From the sequence record ON528724: a stretch of DNA of 39,704 bases; one strand, given 5' to 3'. Of the stretch, positions 1,113-39,704 are shown one piece after another. The first letter of the stretch is position 1; every line of letters begins with the position of its first letter. This stretch comes from Shigella phage ESh12. Both the position numbers and the translations under genes were made by a program. The notes below the pieces were generated by a model. It worked only from the letters and a program-made list of their open reading frames with translations. It made no database searches and had not been told where the DNA came from.

Positions 1113-3227
1113 ATGCTCGTAAGTGACATTGAGGCCAACAACCTCTTAGAGAAAGTCACCAAGTTTCACTGTGGCGTTATCTATGACTACCGTGATGGTG
1201 AGTATCATAGTTATCGTCCGGGCGACTTCGGGGCGTATCTGGATGCGCTGGAAGCCGAGGTGAAGCGAGGTGGGCTTATTGTTTTCCATAACGGTCACAA
1301 ATATGACGTTCCGGCTTTAGAGAAACTCGCAAAGCTGCAACTCAATCGTGACTTCAAGTTACCACGTGAGAATTGTATTGACACACTGGTACTCTCGCGT
1401 TTACTTCATGCGAACCTTAAAGACACAGACATGGGGCTTCTTCGTTCCGGGAAACTACCCGGTCGTCGCTTCGGGTCTCATGCTCTGGAGGCATGGGGTT
1501 ATCGCTTGGGCGAGATGAAAGGTGAATACAAGGACGACTTCAAGGCTATGCTAGAAGAGCAGGGCGAAGAATATGTTGATGGTGCTGAGTGGGTTTCGTT
1601 CAACGAGCCGATGATGGCGTATAACGTTCAAGACGTTGTGGTCACTGTCAAGCTCTTAGAGAAATTCCTTACAGACCTCCACTACTTCCCTGCGGGTATG
1701 GACTTCACGAAGTACGATGCGGATTTATTCTGGCGTGAAGCTGGCGAGTCTGTGGATATTGAGCATCGTGCAGCGTGGCTGTTAGCGAAGCAGGAGCGTA
1801 ACGGCTTCCCGTTCAACACACAGGCCATTGAGGAACTTTATGTAGAACTGGCAGCGAAACGCGCAGAACTTCTGCGAAAGTTAACCGAAACGTTTGGCTC
1901 GTGGTATCAACCGAAAGGTGGTAAGGAACTCTTCAAGCACCCACGTACAGGCAAGCCGCTGCCGAGTTATCCTCGCGTGGTCTATCCGAAACAGGGTGGC
2001 GTGTATAAGAAGCCTCGTAATAAGGCACAGCGCGAAGGTCTTGAACCTTGCGACTTGGACACGAGGGATTACATGGAGGGTGCTCCGTATACTCCGGTCG
2101 AGTTCGTTACGTTCAAGCCAAGTAGCCGTGACCACATTCAGAAGAAACTACAGGAGGCCGGATGGGTTCCTGAGAAGTTCACCGATAAGGGTGCGCCTGT
2201 GGTGGACGATGAGGTCTTGGAGCATGTACGAGTGGATGACCCTGAGAAGCAGGCGTGCATTGACTTGATTAAAGAGTACCTGATGATTCAGAAGCGAATC
2301 GGTCAGGCGGCAGAGGGTGACAAAGCGTGGTTACGTTATGTTCAAGATGATGGTAAGATTCATGGAGCCGTTAACCCTAACGGTGCAGTTACTGGTCGTG
2401 CTACTCATAGTTTCCCAAACCTTGCACAAATACCCGGTGTTCGTTCTCCTTACGGGGAGCAGTGTCGTAGTGCTTTTGGTGCCGAACATCATTTGGATGG
2501 GATTACTGGTAAGCCGTGGGTGCAAGCGGGGATAGACGCCAGTGGCTTAGAGTTGCGCTGTCTGGCACACTTCATGGCTCGCTTCGACAACGGAGAGTAT
2601 GCGAATGAGATTCTCAACGGTGACATTCACACCAAGAACCAGAACGCTGCGGAACTCCCAACGCGCGACAACGCCAAGACATTCATTTACGGGTTCCTTT
2701 ACGGAGCCGGAGATGAGAAGATTGGTCAGATTGTTGGGGCCGGGAAGGAGCGCGGGAAGGAACTCAAGAAGAAATTCTTAGAGAACACCCCGGCGATTGC
2801 AGCGCTACGAGAAGCTATCCAACAGTCCCTCGTTAAGTCTTCCGCTTGGATTGGTGGTGAGCAGAAAGTCCAGTGGAAACGCCGTTGGATTAAGGGTCTG
2901 GATGGTCGCAAGGTTCACGTCAGGTCTCCACACGCAGCGCTCAACACATTGTTGCAGTCTGCTGGTGCTCTGATTTGTAAGCTGTGGATTATCAAGACCG
3001 AAGAGATGCTCATTGAGAAAGGCTTGAAGCATGGCTGGGATGGTGACTTTGCGTACATGGCTTGGGTTCACGATGAGATTCAGGTGGCCTGCCGTACCGA
3101 GCACATCGCTCAGATTGTTATTGACACCGCGCAGGAAGCTATGCGTTGGGTCGGAGAGCATTGGGCTTTCCGTTGTCGTTTAGATACAGAAGGTAAGATG
3201 GGGCCGAATTGGGCTGTCTGCCACTAA
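1113..3227 (+). CDS. 5: DNA polymerase gp5
   Basis: 704 aa, same length as T7 gp5 (from memory); exonuclease motifs and polymerase motifs (DGITGKPWVQAGIDASGLELR, KTFIYGFLYGAG, HDEIQ); RBS AAAGGAGG. Confidence 0.96.
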   Translation: MLVSDIEANNLLEKVTKFHCGVIYDYRDGEYHSYRPGDFGAYLDALEAEVKRGGLIVFHNGHKYDVPALEKLAKLQLNRDFKLPRENCIDTLVLSRLLHANLKDTDMGLLRSGKLPGRRFGSHALEAWGYRLGEMKGEYKDDFKAMLEEQGEEYVDGAEWVSFNEPMMAYNVQDVVVTVKLLEKFLTDLHYFPAGMDFTKYDADLFWREAGESVDIEHRAAWLLAKQERNGFPFNTQAIEELYVELAAKRAELLRKLTETFGSWYQPKGGKELFKHPRTGKPLPSYPRVVYPKQGGVYKKPRNKAQREGLEPCDLDTRDYMEGAPYTPVEFVTFKPSSRDHIQKKLQEAGWVPEKFTDKGAPVVDDEVLEHVRVDDPEKQACIDLIKEYLMIQKRIGQAAEGDKAWLRYVQDDGKIHGAVNPNGAVTGRATHSFPNLAQIPGVRSPYGEQCRSAFGAEHHLDGITGKPWVQAGIDASGLELRCLAHFMARFDNGEYANEILNGDIHTKNQNAAELPTRDNAKTFIYGFLYGAGDEKIGQIVGAGKERGKELKKKFLENTPAIAALREAIQQSLVKSSAWIGGEQKVQWKRRWIKGLDGRKVHVRSPHAALNTLLQSAGALICKLWIIKTEEMLIEKGLKHGWDGDFAYMAWVHDEIQVACRTEHIAQIVIDTAQEAMRWVGEHWAFRCRLDTEGKMGPNWAVCH

Positions 3228-3246
3228 TTCTATAGGAGAAATTATT

Positions 3247-3546
3247 ATGGCTATGACCAAGAAATTTAAAGTGTCATTCGATGTTACCGCTAAGATGGCA
3301 TCTGACGTTCAGGCAATCTTGGAGAAAGACATTCTGCACCTGTGTAAGCAGGTTGGCTCAGGCGCTATTGTCCCCACTGGTAAACAGAAAGAGATGATTG
3401 TCCAGTTCCTGACGTATGGCATGGAGGGGCTGATGGCCTTCCTTGTGCGAACGTCTTTCCGTGAGGCAATCAAAGATATGCACGAAGAGTATGCCGATAA
3501 GGATAGCTTCAAGCTGTCTCCCGCTACTGTACGGGAGGTGTTCTAA
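3247..3546 (+). CDS. 5.5: gp5.5 (H-NS-binding protein family)
   Basis: 99 aa, synteny and similarity to T7 gp5.5; stop overlaps start of 5.7 (TAATGA). Confidence 0.8.
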   Translation: MAMTKKFKVSFDVTAKMASDVQAILEKDILHLCKQVGSGAIVPTGKQKEMIVQFLTYGMEGLMAFLVRTSFREAIKDMHEEYADKDSFKLSPATVREVF

Positions 3547-33232: not shown

Positions 33233-33505
33233 ATGGGACGTATCTATAGCGGCAACCTGAACGATTACAAAGATGCGGTAGCGCGTCTACAGGAAGACCA
33301 TGACGTGACCGTGAAGATGGAGTCATTCAGCTATGAAAACCCAGCGAAGATGTGCAGGTCATCAGGTGAGGTTCTCCGCGTGTTCACACGCTCAGGGCAT
33401 CCGGTGGCATCCAGAACCTTCGAGCATAGTGACAGCGATGTGCAAATCAACGCGCAGACTGCATGGCTCCGCAAGGTTCACAGCGATTTGAAACACTGGA
33501 AGTAA
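33233..33505 (+). CDS. 1.2: gp1.2 (host dGTPase inhibitor family)
   Basis: 90 aa from MGRIYSGNL, ends HWK; similar to T7 gp1.2; ATG choice among three adjacent Met is uncertain. Confidence 0.75.
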   Translation: MGRIYSGNLNDYKDAVARLQEDHDVTVKMESFSYENPAKMCRSSGEVLRVFTRSGHPVASRTFEHSDSDVQINAQTAWLRKVHSDLKHWK

Positions 33506-33525
33506 TAACCCTCACTAACAGGAGA
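33503..33525 (+). promoter_or_regulatory. T3-type phage RNAP promoter (phi1.3 position)
   Basis: TAATAACCCTCACTAACAGGAGA. Confidence 0.75.
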
Positions 33526-33531
33526 AACGAA

Positions 33532-33948
33532 ATGAGAAACATCGAACGGTTCAACGCAAAGACTGAACCTTGCGGTGACTGTCTACGTTGGACTGGTCGA
33601 ATCCAGCCTAACGGTTACGGACAGTTTCGCCTCGAAGGTAAAACACAATACGCACATCGAGCAGCTTACAAGCTGTTTATCGGTGAATTGGACAATAAAG
33701 ATACAGTCCTCCACTCGTGCGATAACAGGTGGTGTGTGAACCCTGAGCATTTGACCAAGGGAACGCAGGCCGATAACCTGAAAGACATGGCGATAAAGGG
33801 TAGGCACCACGCCATTAAGATTCCGAACGATGCCATTGAGGGCATCCGTAAAGACCCTCGCTCTGCCACTGTGATAGCGGCTGAGTGGGGCGTCCATCCA
33901 ACAACCATCCATAAGATTAAGCGAAACATCAACAGGAGATTCGTATGA
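33532..33948 (+). CDS. HNH endonuclease (free-standing, homing-endonuclease-like)
   Basis: 138 aa; HSCDNRWCVNPEHLTKGTQADN HNH core, Cys-containing N-terminal region, C-terminal helix-turn-helix-like tail; stop overlaps ligase ATG (ATGA). Confidence 0.8.
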   Translation: MRNIERFNAKTEPCGDCLRWTGRIQPNGYGQFRLEGKTQYAHRAAYKLFIGELDNKDTVLHSCDNRWCVNPEHLTKGTQADNLKDMAIKGRHHAIKIPNDAIEGIRKDPRSATVIAAEWGVHPTTIHKIKRNINRRFV

Positions 33949-34961
33949 ACATTTTCAAGACCGCGCCATATAAAGCCGTATCCTTTGTAGAGTCTGCCGT
34001 GAAGAAAGCACTTGACAATGCTGGTTATTTGATTTGCGATTGCAAATATGATGGTGTTCGTGGTAACATCGTGGTTGACAACGTGGCTGAGGCTGCATGG
34101 CTGTCCCGTGTAGGTAAGCTGATTCCGGCGCTGGAGCACCTGAACGGCTTCGATAAGCGCTGGCAGCAACTACTGAACGATGACCGCTGCATCTTCCCGG
34201 ACGGCTTCATGCTGGATGGTGAACTGATGGTCAAAGGCGTAGACTTCAACACAGGGTCTGGCCTGCTGCGTACCAAGTGGCTCAAGAAGAACAACTTCAT
34301 GTTTGACCGTGGTGGTGTTGAGCCGCTGAAAGGTTCCAAAGTAGCCTTTGAGTTAGACCCCAAGCTACTCAGCGTGCGCCTGTATGCTGTCATGCCGATT
34401 CACATTGCGGAGTCTGGCGAGGACTACGATGTACAGAACCTGCTGATGCCGTATCATGTGGAAGCCATGCGCTCTCTTCTGGTTGAATACTTCCCGGAAA
34501 TCGAGTGGCTTATCGCTGAGACCTACGAGGTCTACGATATGGATTCACTGACTGAACTGTACGAAGAGAAGCGTGCCGAAGGTCACGAGGGTCTCATTGT
34601 GAAAGACCCACAAGGCATCTACAAGCGAGGCAAGAAGTCTGGCTGGTGGAAGCTCAAGCCTGAGTGTGAAGCTGACGGTATCATTCAGGGTGTCAATTGG
34701 GGAACCGAAGGGTTAGCCAACGAGGGTAAAGTGATAGGCTTTAGTGTGCTTCTTGAGACTGGTCGTTTAGTAGACGCCAACAACATCTCTCGCGCACTGA
34801 TGGACGAGTTCACAGCCAACGTTAAAGCCCACGGTGAAGACTTCTACAACGGGTGGGCCTGTCAGGTCAACTATATGGAAGAGACCCCGGACGGCTCCCT
34901 GCGTCACCCTAGCTTCGAGAAGTTCCGAGGCACTGAGGACAACCCTCAAGAGAAAATGTAA
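33945..34961 (+). CDS. 1.3: ATP-dependent DNA ligase gp1.3
   Basis: 338 aa; active-site KYDGVRG, strong similarity to T7 ligase. Confidence 0.95.
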   Translation: MNIFKTAPYKAVSFVESAVKKALDNAGYLICDCKYDGVRGNIVVDNVAEAAWLSRVGKLIPALEHLNGFDKRWQQLLNDDRCIFPDGFMLDGELMVKGVDFNTGSGLLRTKWLKKNNFMFDRGGVEPLKGSKVAFELDPKLLSVRLYAVMPIHIAESGEDYDVQNLLMPYHVEAMRSLLVEYFPEIEWLIAETYEVYDMDSLTELYEEKRAEGHEGLIVKDPQGIYKRGKKSGWWKLKPECEADGIIQGVNWGTEGLANEGKVIGFSVLLETGRLVDANNISRALMDEFTANVKAHGEDFYNGWACQVNYMEETPDGSLRHPSFEKFRGTEDNPQEKM

Positions 34962-34969
34962 CCAACTCA

Positions 34970-35003
34970 CTGGCTCACCTTCACGGGTGGGCCTTTCTTC
35001 GTT
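34970..35003 (+). terminator. TE-type early (host RNAP) rho-independent terminator
   Basis: CTGGCTCACCTTCACGGGTGGGCCTTTCTTCGTT; near-identical to T7 TE from memory. Confidence 0.8.
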
Positions 35004-35388: not shown

Positions 35389-35879
35389 TGTTACAACATC
35401 ATTGGAACAAACCAGACTTAGAGGCCCGCTTCCCGGTTAACTCTGTTGTGCGATACTCCGGCGGTGGCCTCAAGCGCATCTTAGGGATGAGCGGAGTGGT
35501 CACTGGTCACTCGCACACAGGTCGCGTTAAGGTTCGCTTCGGTACTCAGCACGCTGAGGTTCTTCCTGACAACCTGATTCCGCTGCCTAAAGCTGACGTT
35601 AAGACTCCGAACGTGGAAGCACCGAAGACAGAAGTCAAGTCTGACGTGACCCATCCGAACCACTATATGCTGTTCGACAACGTGGAAGCCATTGAGGTTA
35701 TCGCCCGGTCAATGACCGTCGAGCAATTCAAAGGCTACGTGCTTGGGAACATCCTGAAATACCGTCTGCGTGCTGGTAAGAAATCCGAACTGGCAACGAT
35801 GGAGAAAGACCTTAAGAAAGCGGCTTTCTATCAGGAACTGTTTGACAAACATAAGGGGCTGTGTTATGACGCTTCGTGA
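35388..35879 (+). CDS. 1.7: gp1.7 nucleotide kinase-like protein
   Basis: 163 aa; C-terminal [29 protein letters not shown]...[10 protein letters not shown] matches T7 gp1.7. Confidence 0.8.
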
Positions 35880-36012
35880 ATGCTGCGATTGGTGTGCCGC
35901 TAAGTGGAACCAAGCTATTGAGGCTGGTGACGAGGCCGCAGCCAACGCCTATCAACAATTGTACGCGCTGTGGGAGCGGCGCTTTAAGGAGGCTCAAAGT
36001 GGAGCAACGTGA
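35866..36012 (+). CDS. 1.8: gp1.8-like small protein
   Basis: 48 aa from ATG 35866 after AAGGGG, overlaps end of 1.7. Confidence 0.45.
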
Positions 36013-36175
36013 ACAGAAATACCTTCTGACGATAGAAGGCAACACCGAGTCCTTTGAGGTTCCGGTATTCGCCCGGTCTCTCGAAGAGGCAACGCTACAG
36101 GCTGAACATTATGAGGACGCTGGGTTCGTAGTGACTCGCATCCGTCCAGAAGTTAAGCCTAATTACCCTCACTAA
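35999..36175 (+). CDS. 2: gp2 host RNA polymerase inhibitor (probable GTG start)
   Basis: [33 protein letters not shown] resembles T7 gp2; GTG 7 nt after AAGGAGG. Confidence 0.6.
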
Positions 36176-36182
36176 AGGGAAC
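36160..36182 (+). promoter_or_regulatory. T3-type phage RNAP promoter (phi2.5 position)
   Basis: TAATTACCCTCACTAAAGGGAAC, overlaps end of gene 2. Confidence 0.75.
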
Positions 36183-36214
36183 AACCCAATCATTAACCAC
36201 AAAGGAGAAACATT

Positions 36215-36913
36215 ATGGCTGGTTTCAAGAAGAAAATTTACACCTCTGGTCTTGGCACTGCTGAGCCTTATGCTTATCTGAGTAAGCCGGATTATGGCAA
36301 CGAAGAGCGTGGCTTCGGCAACCCTCGTGGTGTCTATAAGGTAGACCTGACTCTTTCCAATAAAGACCCGCGCTGTCAGGCAATGGTCGATGAAATCGTG
36401 AAGTGTCACGAAGAGGCTTATGCTGCTGCCGTGGAAGAGTTCGAAGCTAACCCGCCGCAGGTACAGCGTGGTAAGAAACCACTGAAACCTTACGAGGGCG
36501 ACATGCCGTTCTTCGATAATGGTGACGGTACGACTACCTTCAAGTTCAAATGCTATGCGTCTTTCCAAGATAAGAAGACCAAAGAGACCAAGCACATCAA
36601 TCTGGTCGTGGTCGATAGCAAGGGTAAGAAGATTCAGGAAGTGCCGATTATCGGTGGCGGCTCCAAGCTGAAAGTGAAATACTCTCTGGTGCCTTACAAG
36701 TGGAACACCGCTGTGGGCGCAAGCGTCAAGCTGCAACTGGAGTCCGTGATGTTGGTCGAACTGGCTACCTTCGGTGGTGGCGGTGAAGATGAGTGGGCCG
36801 ATGAAGTCGAAGATGGTGGTTACACTGCGAGTGAATCCCGTCAGTCCCGCGATGAGCAGGAGTGGCAGGAAGACGAGCACGAAGAAACCCCGGATGAGGA
36901 CGAGGATTTTTAA
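36215..36913 (+). CDS. 2.5: Single-stranded DNA-binding protein gp2.5
   Basis: 232 aa, same length as T7 gp2.5 (from memory); acidic C-terminal tail ...DEDEDF. Confidence 0.95.
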   Translation: MAGFKKKIYTSGLGTAEPYAYLSKPDYGNEERGFGNPRGVYKVDLTLSNKDPRCQAMVDEIVKCHEEAYAAAVEEFEANPPQVQRGKKPLKPYEGDMPFFDNGDGTTTFKFKCYASFQDKKTKETKHINLVVVDSKGKKIQEVPIIGGGSKLKVKYSLVPYKWNTAVGASVKLQLESVMLVELATFGGGGEDEWADEVEDGGYTASESRQSRDEQEWQEDEHEETPDEDEDF

Positions 36914-37390
36914 ATGGAACTTAGAGAGAAACTAAAGGCTTACAGCGAAGTTTCTCATAACGGGTGCTGGGAGTGGCAACGCTACCGGATGCCCTGTGGT
37001 TACGGTAGGATTAGACACGGAGGCCGAATGGAACTAACGCATCGTCTATCCTACCTAGCATTCAACGGGGATATACCTGATGGTCTTGTTGTTCGACATA
37101 AGTGTGACAACAAATGCTGCGTTAACCCTGAGCACCTTACGCTGGGTACTCAAAAGGACAACGTTAAGGATGCAATAGACCGTGGTCAATTCGTCTACAG
37201 GGAGAACCCGAAAGGTGCAAAGCACCACATGGCTAAACTTAATGAGAAACAGGTTATGGAGGTTTACAACTCGACACAGACCCAAAGCAGCCTAGCAGAG
37301 ACCTATGGTGTATCTCGACAATTAATCAGCGCGATTAAGAGAGGTAAACTATGGCAGCACGTTACGCAGCACGCGGAGTTAAACGAGTAG
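36914..37390 (+). CDS. HNH endonuclease (paralog of 33532..33948)
   Basis: 158 aa; HKCDNKCCVNPEHLTLGTQKDN HNH core; ATG immediately after gp2.5 stop; 3 prime end overlaps gene 3 by 40 nt. Confidence 0.8.
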   Translation: MELREKLKAYSEVSHNGCWEWQRYRMPCGYGRIRHGGRMELTHRLSYLAFNGDIPDGLVVRHKCDNKCCVNPEHLTLGTQKDNVKDAIDRGQFVYRENPKGAKHHMAKLNEKQVMEVYNSTQTQSSLAETYGVSRQLISAIKRGKLWQHVTQHAELNE

Positions 37391-37806
37391 GATCATATAG
37401 AAGCGGCTTAGAGCAGAAGAACATGGAGATGCTGGAACGCAAGGGAATCAAGGGACAGTATGAAATGTGGTCTATTCCATATGTTATCCCTGCATCGACC
37501 CACAAGTACACACCAGACATAATCCTACCCAATGGAATCATTATTGAGACCAAGGGTCTATGGGATAGTGAAGACCGTAAGAAACACTTACTGATTCGTG
37601 AGCAGATGCCTGAGTTGGATATTCGTTTGGTATTCTCTTCGAGCCGCTCTAAGTTATACAAAGGGTCTCCAACCAGTTACGGTGAGTGGGCCGAAAAGCA
37701 TGGTATTCTATTTGCTGACAAGCTGATTCCTGTGGAGTGGCTTAAAGAACCTAAGAAGGAGATACCGTGGGATAAACTAATTGCAAAGAAAGGAGTTAAG
37801 AAATAA
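37351..37806 (+). CDS. 3: Endonuclease I gp3 (Holliday-junction resolvase)
   Basis: 151 aa; PYVIPAS, YTPDIILPNGIIIETKGLW, KKHLLIREQ, VFSSSRSKLYKGSPTSYGEW match T7 gp3. Confidence 0.92.
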   Translation: MAARYAARGVKRVGSYRSGLEQKNMEMLERKGIKGQYEMWSIPYVIPASTHKYTPDIILPNGIIIETKGLWDSEDRKKHLLIREQMPELDIRLVFSSSRSKLYKGSPTSYGEWAEKHGILFADKLIPVEWLKEPKKEIPWDKLIAKKGVKK

Positions 37807-38261
37807 TGGCTAAGGTACAATTCAAAACGCGCGCTTCTACGGAAGCAATCTTTGTTCACTGTAGTGCAACCAAGCCAAGCCAGAACATTGGCGTTCGTGA
37901 GATTCGTCAGTGGCACAAAGAGCAGGGCTGGTTAGACGTAGGATATCACTTCATCATCAAGCGTGATGGCACTGTGGAAGCAGGCCGCGATGAACTGGCT
38001 GTAGGTTCCCACGTGAAAGGTTACAACCACAACTCCGTAGGCGTATGCCTCGTGGGTGGGATTGATGATAAAGGCAAGTTCGACGCCAACTTTACACCTG
38101 CGCAAATGCAAGCGCTGCGTAGTCTGCTGGTCACGCTGCTGGCGAAGTATGAGGGTTCAATCCTTCGCGCTCACCATGACGTTGCACCCAAAGCCTGCCC
38201 GTCCTTCGACTTGAAGCGCTGGTGGGAGAAGAACGAACTGGTTACATCTGACCGAGGGTGA
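37806..38261 (+). CDS. 3.5: Lysozyme gp3.5 (N-acetylmuramoyl-L-alanine amidase, RNAP inhibitor)
   Basis: 151 aa, same length as T7 lysozyme; zinc ligands and strong similarity. Confidence 0.95.
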   Translation: MAKVQFKTRASTEAIFVHCSATKPSQNIGVREIRQWHKEQGWLDVGYHFIIKRDGTVEAGRDELAVGSHVKGYNHNSVGVCLVGGIDDKGKFDANFTPAQMQALRSLLVTLLAKYEGSILRAHHDVAPKACPSFDLKRWWEKNELVTSDRG

Positions 38262-38265
38262 TACC

Positions 38266-38371
38266 ATGAGGATGATTTGTATTCGCTGTGATAAGCCGTT
38301 GAAGAGTCGTGTACCGTCACGTCAGTGTCAGTGCAAAGACCCAATCAAGGCGGAGGAACACACCGAGGAAT

Positions 38372-38373
<2 letters not shown>
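38266..38373 (+). CDS. gp3.7-like small Cys-rich protein (35 aa)
   Basis: MRMICIRCDKPLKSRVPSRQCQCKD...; below ORF-track cutoff; zinc-ribbon-like CxxC...CxC. Confidence 0.4.

Positions 38374-39704
<1,331 letters not shown>

Follow-up and report, generated by a model that had tools for sequence, protein, structure and literature searches.

An HNH endonuclease gene of the T7 gene 2.8 lineage and its linkage to a divergent gene 3 allele in the T3-like Shigella phage ESh12

Shigella phage ESh12 carries a gene for an HNH (His-Me finger) endonuclease between gene 2.5, which codes for the single-stranded DNA-binding protein, and gene 3, which codes for the Holliday-junction resolvase endonuclease I. 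The sequence analysed (the window) is the whole 39,704 nt of record ON528724. Gene order and megablast matches place it in the Teetrevirus (T3-like phages), T3-type promoters are scattered repeatedly along it, and its size (39.7 kb) is comparable to that of its relatives. Positions 1–39704 appear to constitute a complete T3-like genome that is circularly permuted, since the window opens just upstream of the DNA polymerase gene and closes inside the primase/helicase gene; the last ~1.3 kb aligns to the primase/helicase gene of relatives. The nearest sequenced backbone over the first 25 kb is that of Serratia phage 2050H2 (97.8%). The features of the locus are as follows.

36160..36180, + strand: T3-type phage RNA polymerase promoter phi2.5, found as a sequence pattern; an equivalent phi2.5 is annotated in phiYeO3-12 and T3.
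36215..36913, + strand: gene 2.5, single-stranded DNA-binding protein (Pfam SBB_T7, E 8.9e-89), the conserved left flank of the mosaic block.
36902..36906, + strand: GAGGA Shine-Dalgarno sequence, read from the sequence, 7 nt ahead of the HNH ATG.
36914..37390, + strand: HNH (His-Me finger) endonuclease gene, 158 aa, homologue of T7 gene 2.8.
37034..37165, + strand: HNH_3 catalytic core, residues 41–84 (Pfam envelope), containing H62, N83 and the invariant C64, C69 and H74.
37244..37339, + strand: C-terminal three-helix bundle, residues 111–142, from a predicted model; a probable helix-turn-helix DNA-binding module.
37339..37344, + strand: GAGAGG Shine-Dalgarno sequence for gene 3, read from the sequence, 6 nt ahead of the gene 3 ATG.
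37351..37806, + strand: gene 3, endonuclease I, Holliday-junction resolvase (Pfam Phage_endo_I, E 1.6e-77).
37351..37390, + strand: overlap of the HNH gene and gene 3, 40 nt in different frames (HNH residues 146–158 against the first 13 gene 3 codons).
36914..37868 (right edge approximate, ~37868), + strand: mosaic block of the HNH gene, all of gene 3 and the first ~63 nt of gene 3.5, delimited by sliding identity and SNP tables.

The HNH gene is packed tightly between its neighbors. The gene 2.5 stop codon is TAA (36911–36913), the HNH ATG at 36914 is the first base past it, and the reading frame runs 40 nt into gene 3, just as a sequence-only reading of this DNA had described and as the list of open reading frames and the sequence bear out. 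The HNH tail within the overlap is poorly conserved and the family consensus stops at ~W147, almost exactly at the gene 3 start, so that the overlap is a non-conserved read-through tail; the conserved part of the protein fills the span from the gene 2.5 stop to the gene 3 start. Gene 3 should be annotated from its full-length start within the end of the HNH gene; read from there, it fits the Phage_endo_I profile from position 2. In the GenBank records of phages VSG32 and CT02 (both 2925–3308) gene 3 begins at a downstream ATG, losing 24 codons, a truncation apparently made to avoid the HNH overlap.

The HNH gene is probably co-transcribed with genes 2.5 and 3, since phi2.5 is the sole phage promoter detected upstream of the run of three genes. 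The promoter pattern was derived from the phi2.5 site itself and its exact match there is uninformative alone, but it has seven further sites in the window at three or fewer mismatches (0.01 expected); from 36181 to the window end it has none. Scans for sigma-70 promoters and terminators across 35800–38700 yielded no more than shuffled sequence, and with no signal from these scans a promoter or terminator belonging to the HNH gene was rejected. The GAGGA ahead of the HNH gene is embedded in codons for the acidic C-terminus of gp2.5, a ribosome-binding site is annotated at about this position in Escherichia phage LL2, and the corresponding segment of phiYeO3-12, where there is no HNH gene, is also GAGGA and lies immediately before gene 3. 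This GAGGA probably serves gene 3 in phages with an empty site, and the HNH gene would appear to have taken over a Shine-Dalgarno sequence otherwise used by gene 3. Gene 3 nonetheless retains a ribosome-binding site, because a GAGAGG occurs near the end of the HNH reading frame, within its codons K-R-G; LL2 is annotated with a ribosome-binding site at the equivalent place.

The assignment of the open reading frame as an HNH endonuclease gene, made from sequence features in the sequence-only reading, is borne out by profile searches. Residues 41–84 match Pfam HNH_3 (PF13392) at E 4.7e-15 (55.4 bits, cut-off 24.8), and PHROG HNH endonuclease families match at E 2e-37 to 6e-09. It is not a chance open reading frame, given that 221 database proteins match it at E <= 1e-10 and that dN/dS against same-site homologues is about 0.09–0.15, a value to be read with dS saturated in the informative comparisons and with too few differences among the close carriers. 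The motif HKCDNKCCVNPEHLTLGTQKDN occupies residues 62–83, and an alignment of 77 sequences has invariant columns at C18, H62, C64, C69, N71, P72, H74, L75, G78 and N83, in which C18, C64, C69 and H74 suggest a structural zinc site. The gene thus seems to be under purifying selection with its catalytic residues intact, which argues against a dead remnant.

An AlphaFold model of the protein, built on 77 homologues, has a pLDDT of 92.4. An N-terminal beta region precedes a beta-beta-alpha metal finger (strands 59–62 and 75–78, helix 80–89; pLDDT 95–98), which in the model and the alignment carries the catalytic His and the metal-binding Asn. The linker is less confident, with a minimum at residues 91–100 (mean pLDDT 67), and is followed by the C-terminal bundle (helices 111–119, 124–131 and 135–142) and one last helix; block-mean pLDDT is 97–98 for residues 111–140 and 94 for 141–150, and the mean over residues 151–158 is 76. 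The C-terminal tail is a probable helix-turn-helix DNA-binding module, a call that rests on the structure model because helix-turn-helix matches at the sequence level are below threshold (Pfam on isolated C-terminal tails: Sigma70_r4, E 0.0098; HTH_3, E 0.013).

Phage T7 has a gene in exactly the same slot. T7 gene 2.8 lies between genes 2.5 and 3, its first base directly follows the 2.5 stop, and its last 20 nt are shared with gene 3, in keeping with the earlier remark that T7 has small open reading frames at comparable positions. The ESh12 protein and T7 gp2.8 (NP_041971.1) are 39% identical over 147 aa by BLASTP (E 5e-32, 101 bits) and 42% identical in a global alignment, and they have in common a MELREK N-terminus, the HNH_3 core and the C-terminal helical tail; an extended linker at residues ~90–105 accounts for the 19 aa by which the ESh12 protein exceeds T7 gp2.8. 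T7 gp7.7 scores almost as well (90 bits), so the orthology to gp2.8 leans on position more than on sequence. With both the slot and significant similarity in common, it is nearly certain that the ESh12 gene is the positional homologue of T7 gene 2.8 and the T3-group representative of its lineage. Of the four T7 genes suggested earlier as relatives, 2.8 and 7.7 are homologous, while gp3.8 has a marginal, motif-level match (E 0.007) and gp5.3 has no similarity; neither of the latter two is a useful comparator.

Closer relatives are found at the same site in other phages. LL2_017 of phage LL2 is 99.4% identical and is already annotated as an HNH endonuclease, and proteins of the same allele (96–99% identical) are present in Klebsiella phages VSG32 and mtp4, Shigella phage CT02 and Serratia phage HMGUsm2. 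The mtp4 copy (2405–2878) has six amino-acid changes in 145 codons (dN/dS about 0.5); one of them, E73G, falls in the nearly invariant NPEH motif and may mark the beginning of nuclease decay. Metagenomic relatives with 72–73% identity (243 bits) all lie between SBB_T7 and Phage_endo_I genes, a second type of protein represented by Citrobacter phage SH1 gp17 is 50–51% identical (152 bits), and homologues with 46–54% identity are flanked by ssDNA-binding protein and endonuclease I genes in many Studiervirinae. The overlap with gene 3 differs in length, at 20 nt in T7, 37 nt in SH1 and 40 nt in ESh12. Judged from these flanking genes, the 2.5/3 slot is old and widely used across the Studiervirinae. 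The HNH gene is of an already-known and already-annotated kind in a well-known slot; it should be labelled a gene 2.8-type HNH homing endonuclease, and taken by itself has little significance beyond correct annotation.

Occupancy of the slot is variable among T3-like phages. T3 and phiYeO3-12 have an empty site, in which the 2.5 stop overlaps the gene 3 start by one base (TAATG); SH1, 2050H2, ESh8 and others carry the other HNH allele, 50–51% identical to that of ESh12; and the ESh12 allele is carried by five sequenced phages, LL2, VSG32, mtp4, CT02 and HMGUsm2. From these comparisons there are three states at one precise junction among near-identical genomes: the ESh12 allele, the SH1 type and the empty site. 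The suggestion that the gene is ancestral to the group therefore stands in part, in that the slot is old within the Studiervirinae, but among the T3-like phages some sites are empty, and the occupied ones carry at least two deeply diverged alleles. The five carriers of the ESh12 allele differ from ESh12 and from each other in adjacent mosaic patches, and 2050H2, the nearest backbone relative of ESh12, holds the other allele, so that the allele moves between backbones.

The polymorphism is not restricted to the HNH gene. In sliding comparisons with phiYeO3-12, SH1 and 2050H2, nucleotide identity is 98–100% through to the 2.5 stop codon, falls to 38–84% across the HNH gene (where present) and gene 3 to 37800, with one bin at 90%, is 0.76–0.94 over 37800–37899, and is about 100% again from 37900; the last linked difference in the SNP table is at about 37868. 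The G+C content is about 0.44–0.49 in the block and 0.50–0.54 in its flanks, and by these measures the block is foreign to an otherwise ~98–100% identical T3-like backbone. The earlier proposal of insertion into a very short intergenic gap fails on both counts, as genes 2.5 and 3 overlap at the empty site and the HNH gene comes with replacement of all of gene 3 rather than as a simple insertion. The same step is seen in the encoded proteins, as follows.

Protein identity across the three HNH states: gp2.5, 96–99%; gp3, 71–80%; gp3.5, 95–99%.
Protein identity between T3 and phiYeO3-12 (both empty-site): gp2.5, 98%; gp3, 93%; gp3.5, 97%.

The gp2.5 of ESh12 is 98–99% identical to those of T3, phiYeO3-12, SH1 and 2050H2, and its gp3 is 71–80% identical to those of the same four phages and T7. 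The ESh12 gene 3 allele (>95% nucleotide identity) is present in exactly six records (five phages), all with the ESh12 HNH allele, and is absent from all of the many HNH-less relatives among 50,697 phage records; the linkage of HNH gene and gene 3 was compared across just the three HNH states. The block of the SH1 type extends to about the stop codon of gene 3, and each of the two HNH alleles stands at the left edge of the gene 3 replacement that it accompanies. Both edges of the ESh12 block fall on highly conserved stretches, on the left the codons of the acidic gp2.5 tail and on the right the beginning of gene 3.5. Gene 3 divergence is about 25–30% at the nucleotide level, and is old, the result of import from a distant lineage and not of recent mutations conferring immunity at a target site. 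The metagenomic relatives noted above were rejected as block donors, with gp3 75–76% and gp2.5 62–86% identical to those of ESh12.

Other parts of the genome are mosaic as well. Further sharp patches, with 50–80% identity against ~98–100% around them, are found at 35400–35650 (gene 1.7 region), 38400–38600 (where the primase/helicase gene begins) and 34500–35000 (ligase 3' end and gene 1.45 slot); these patches assort independently among the eight T3-like phages compared, and no nuclease gene is evident at 35400–35650 or 38400–38600. A 440-nt gene 3/3.5 segment of the window matches Serratia phage SALSA (MT419366.1, 14954–15824) as two pieces over 871 nt, which suggests that SALSA has an extra insert of ~430 nt within its stretch of gene 3 and the gene 3.5 start, perhaps another small nuclease gene.

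We regard it as likely, taking the statement as a whole, that the ESh12 HNH protein is a homing endonuclease of the gene 2.8 lineage that is active in homing and co-converts gene 3; active homing with co-conversion is the uncertain part of this explanation, and membership of the lineage the firm one. The HNH gene would be expressed with genes 2.5 and 3 from phi2.5 as part of a class II (DNA-metabolism) message. The C-terminal helix-turn-helix and the N-terminal beta region would together read a long asymmetric site, and the His-Me finger, with H62 as general base, N83 as metal ligand and a probable structural zinc on C18/C64/C69/H74, would nick or cut the DNA of a co-infecting relative that does not have the ESh12 allele. 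Recombinational repair from the HNH-bearing genome would then copy the HNH gene together with the adjacent gene 3 allele, and the two would act as one exchangeable cassette, flanked by the highly conserved 3' end of gene 2.5 and 5' end of gene 3.5. A recent preprint considers T7 2.8 a homing endonuclease (bioRxiv 10.1101/2025.09.07.674715). In the literature we found no cleavage activity, target site or homing event for either the ESh12 HNH protein or T7 gp2.8, and comparison of the sequences alone yielded no target site.

A stronger version, which we put forward tentatively and consider more doubtful than not, is that the HNH gene and the divergent gene 3 allele are a co-adapted two-gene cassette, in which the nuclease targets rival gene 3 alleles or empty 2.5/3 junctions and each allele protects and spreads its own gene 3. 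If so, homing would cause the Holliday-junction resolvase gene to be exchanged whole among T3-like phages, and the 2.5–3 junction would offer a natural and tractable system in which to follow how a nuclease drives the allelic replacement of a core phage gene, possibly with an anti-defence benefit in addition.

That benefit to the phage, for example in anti-defence, is the main reason for which the gene is kept, with DNA binding rather than cleavage blunting host systems that sense breaks, seems unlikely to us, although there is relevant evidence from T7. T7 without 2.8, 3.8 and 7.7 is outcompeted by wild type only under GAPS4, and catalytically dead T7 gp3.8 and another HNH protein attenuate GAPS4 (10.1101/2025.09.07.674715); strong purifying selection and long persistence of the slot across the Studiervirinae also fit a useful gene. 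However, gp2.8 is covered in that preprint only within the triple deletion, many close relatives (T3, phiYeO3-12 and others) manage without the HNH gene, and invariant catalytic residues are superfluous for a role in binding alone. Anti-defence and homing roles are not mutually exclusive, and by analogy with the T7 proteins an added anti-defence benefit of the ESh12 gene is possible.

The HNH gene could also be a passive passenger, its endonuclease inactive or targetless, in a block moved by ordinary homologous recombination. The HNH gene, gene 3 and ~63 nt of gene 3.5 form one block, a pattern that ordinary recombination could yield; T3-like genomes are mosaic in many places with blocks that assort independently, the edges of this block fall on very conserved sequence, and the mtp4 substitution in NPEH may indicate decay. 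We nevertheless think this improbable, as the catalytic and zinc-type residues are intact in ESh12 and the 77 homologues, dN/dS is well below 1, and the position of the two HNH alleles, each at the left edge of its own gene 3 block, is the pattern reported for active nucleases (PMC10448857).

The window contains one other HNH gene, and tblastn searches of the window with several HNH proteins identified none beyond these two.

33532..33948, + strand: other HNH_3 gene, 138 aa, between gene 1.2 and the ligase gene (Pfam HNH_3, E 4.5e-09).

A phi1.3-like promoter, TAATAACCCTCACTAACAGGA (33503–33523), ends 8 nt ahead of this upstream HNH gene, and its AGGAG doubles as the Shine-Dalgarno sequence of the gene; the stop codon overlaps the ligase start (ATGA at 33945). 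T3 has no gene at this position, only a promoter and an RNase III site. The two HNH proteins of the window are 34% identical (E 4e-26, 84 bits, 139 residues aligned including the C-terminal tail), and the sequence-only reading was correct in relating them. It had also called them paralogs, which holds for their kinship but not for a duplication: their mutual score of 84 bits compares with 101–243 bits for same-site genes elsewhere. The 1.2/1.3 region with the upstream HNH allele is found in 14 other records at 93–97% nucleotide identity, and among the records listed for both searches only CT02 has both HNH alleles together, so far as these records go an independent distribution of the two genes. 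With 34% identity, closer same-site relatives and independent distributions, the two are separately acquired members of one family. Their origin by duplication within the genome is hardly credible, since the common family, length, domain order and motif on which it would draw are outweighed by the higher scores of the metagenomic relatives (243), SH1 gp17 (152) and T7 2.8 (101) and by the separate occurrence of the upstream gene in those 14 records. A further HNH gene, of the 1.45 type and a different HNH subfamily, is present after the ligase gene in LL2 (65–538), phiYeO3-12 (gene 1.45) and VSG32 (1–526); the ESh12 window is without it. The class II region of T3-like genomes thus offers no fewer than three HNH slots, each occupied independently of the others.

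Among proteins of solved structure, the ESh12 HNH protein most resembles I-HmuI, the intron-encoded HNH nicking homing endonuclease of Bacillus phage SPO1. I-HmuI (1u3e) is the first match in a Foldseek search with the model (E 2e-4, probability 1.00, 150 aligned columns), with a low TM-score of 0.37 that is presumably due to a different arrangement of the domains, and it is the sole match in a sequence search of the PDB (E 0.008). H62 aligns to I-HmuI H75 and N83 to I-HmuI N96, the catalytic residue and a metal ligand of that enzyme, respectively. Both proteins have a His-Me finger nuclease followed by a C-terminal helix-turn-helix, a two-module order that for ESh12 comes from the model and the Foldseek alignment at TM 0.37. 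They differ in that I-HmuI is intron-encoded whereas the ESh12 gene is free-standing, sequence identity is about 20%, the I-HmuI metal ligand D74 is replaced by R61 in ESh12, and the putative zinc site at the invariant C18, C64, C69 and H74 of the ESh12 subfamily is not evident in the I-HmuI sequence. The ESh12 protein is a free-standing, I-HmuI-like member of the HNH_3 family, the family membership being nearly certain.

The position of the gene is reminiscent of other phage nucleases. Nuclease genes sit at the boundaries of exchanged phage blocks (PMC10448857), and in that pattern, as with T4 SegG and MobE, a nuclease likewise lies at the edge of a block that differs sharply between near-identical genomes. 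At the 2.5/3 junction each of the three HNH states comes with its own deeply diverged form of endonuclease I, in genomes that are otherwise ~98% identical; this provides a simple natural setting in which to study nuclease-driven exchange and marker exclusion among T7-like phages, and mosaic boundaries in T7-like genomes may be set by such nuclease genes. That the HNH gene is linked to a divergent gene 3 allele adds modestly to this picture and fits existing models. The T4 and ICP1 examples involve other nuclease families or other phage groups, and the ESh12 case is known from comparison of sequences; T4 SegG and MobE co-convert flanking genes, and in ESh12 it is gene 3, with an essential function, that travels with the HNH gene.
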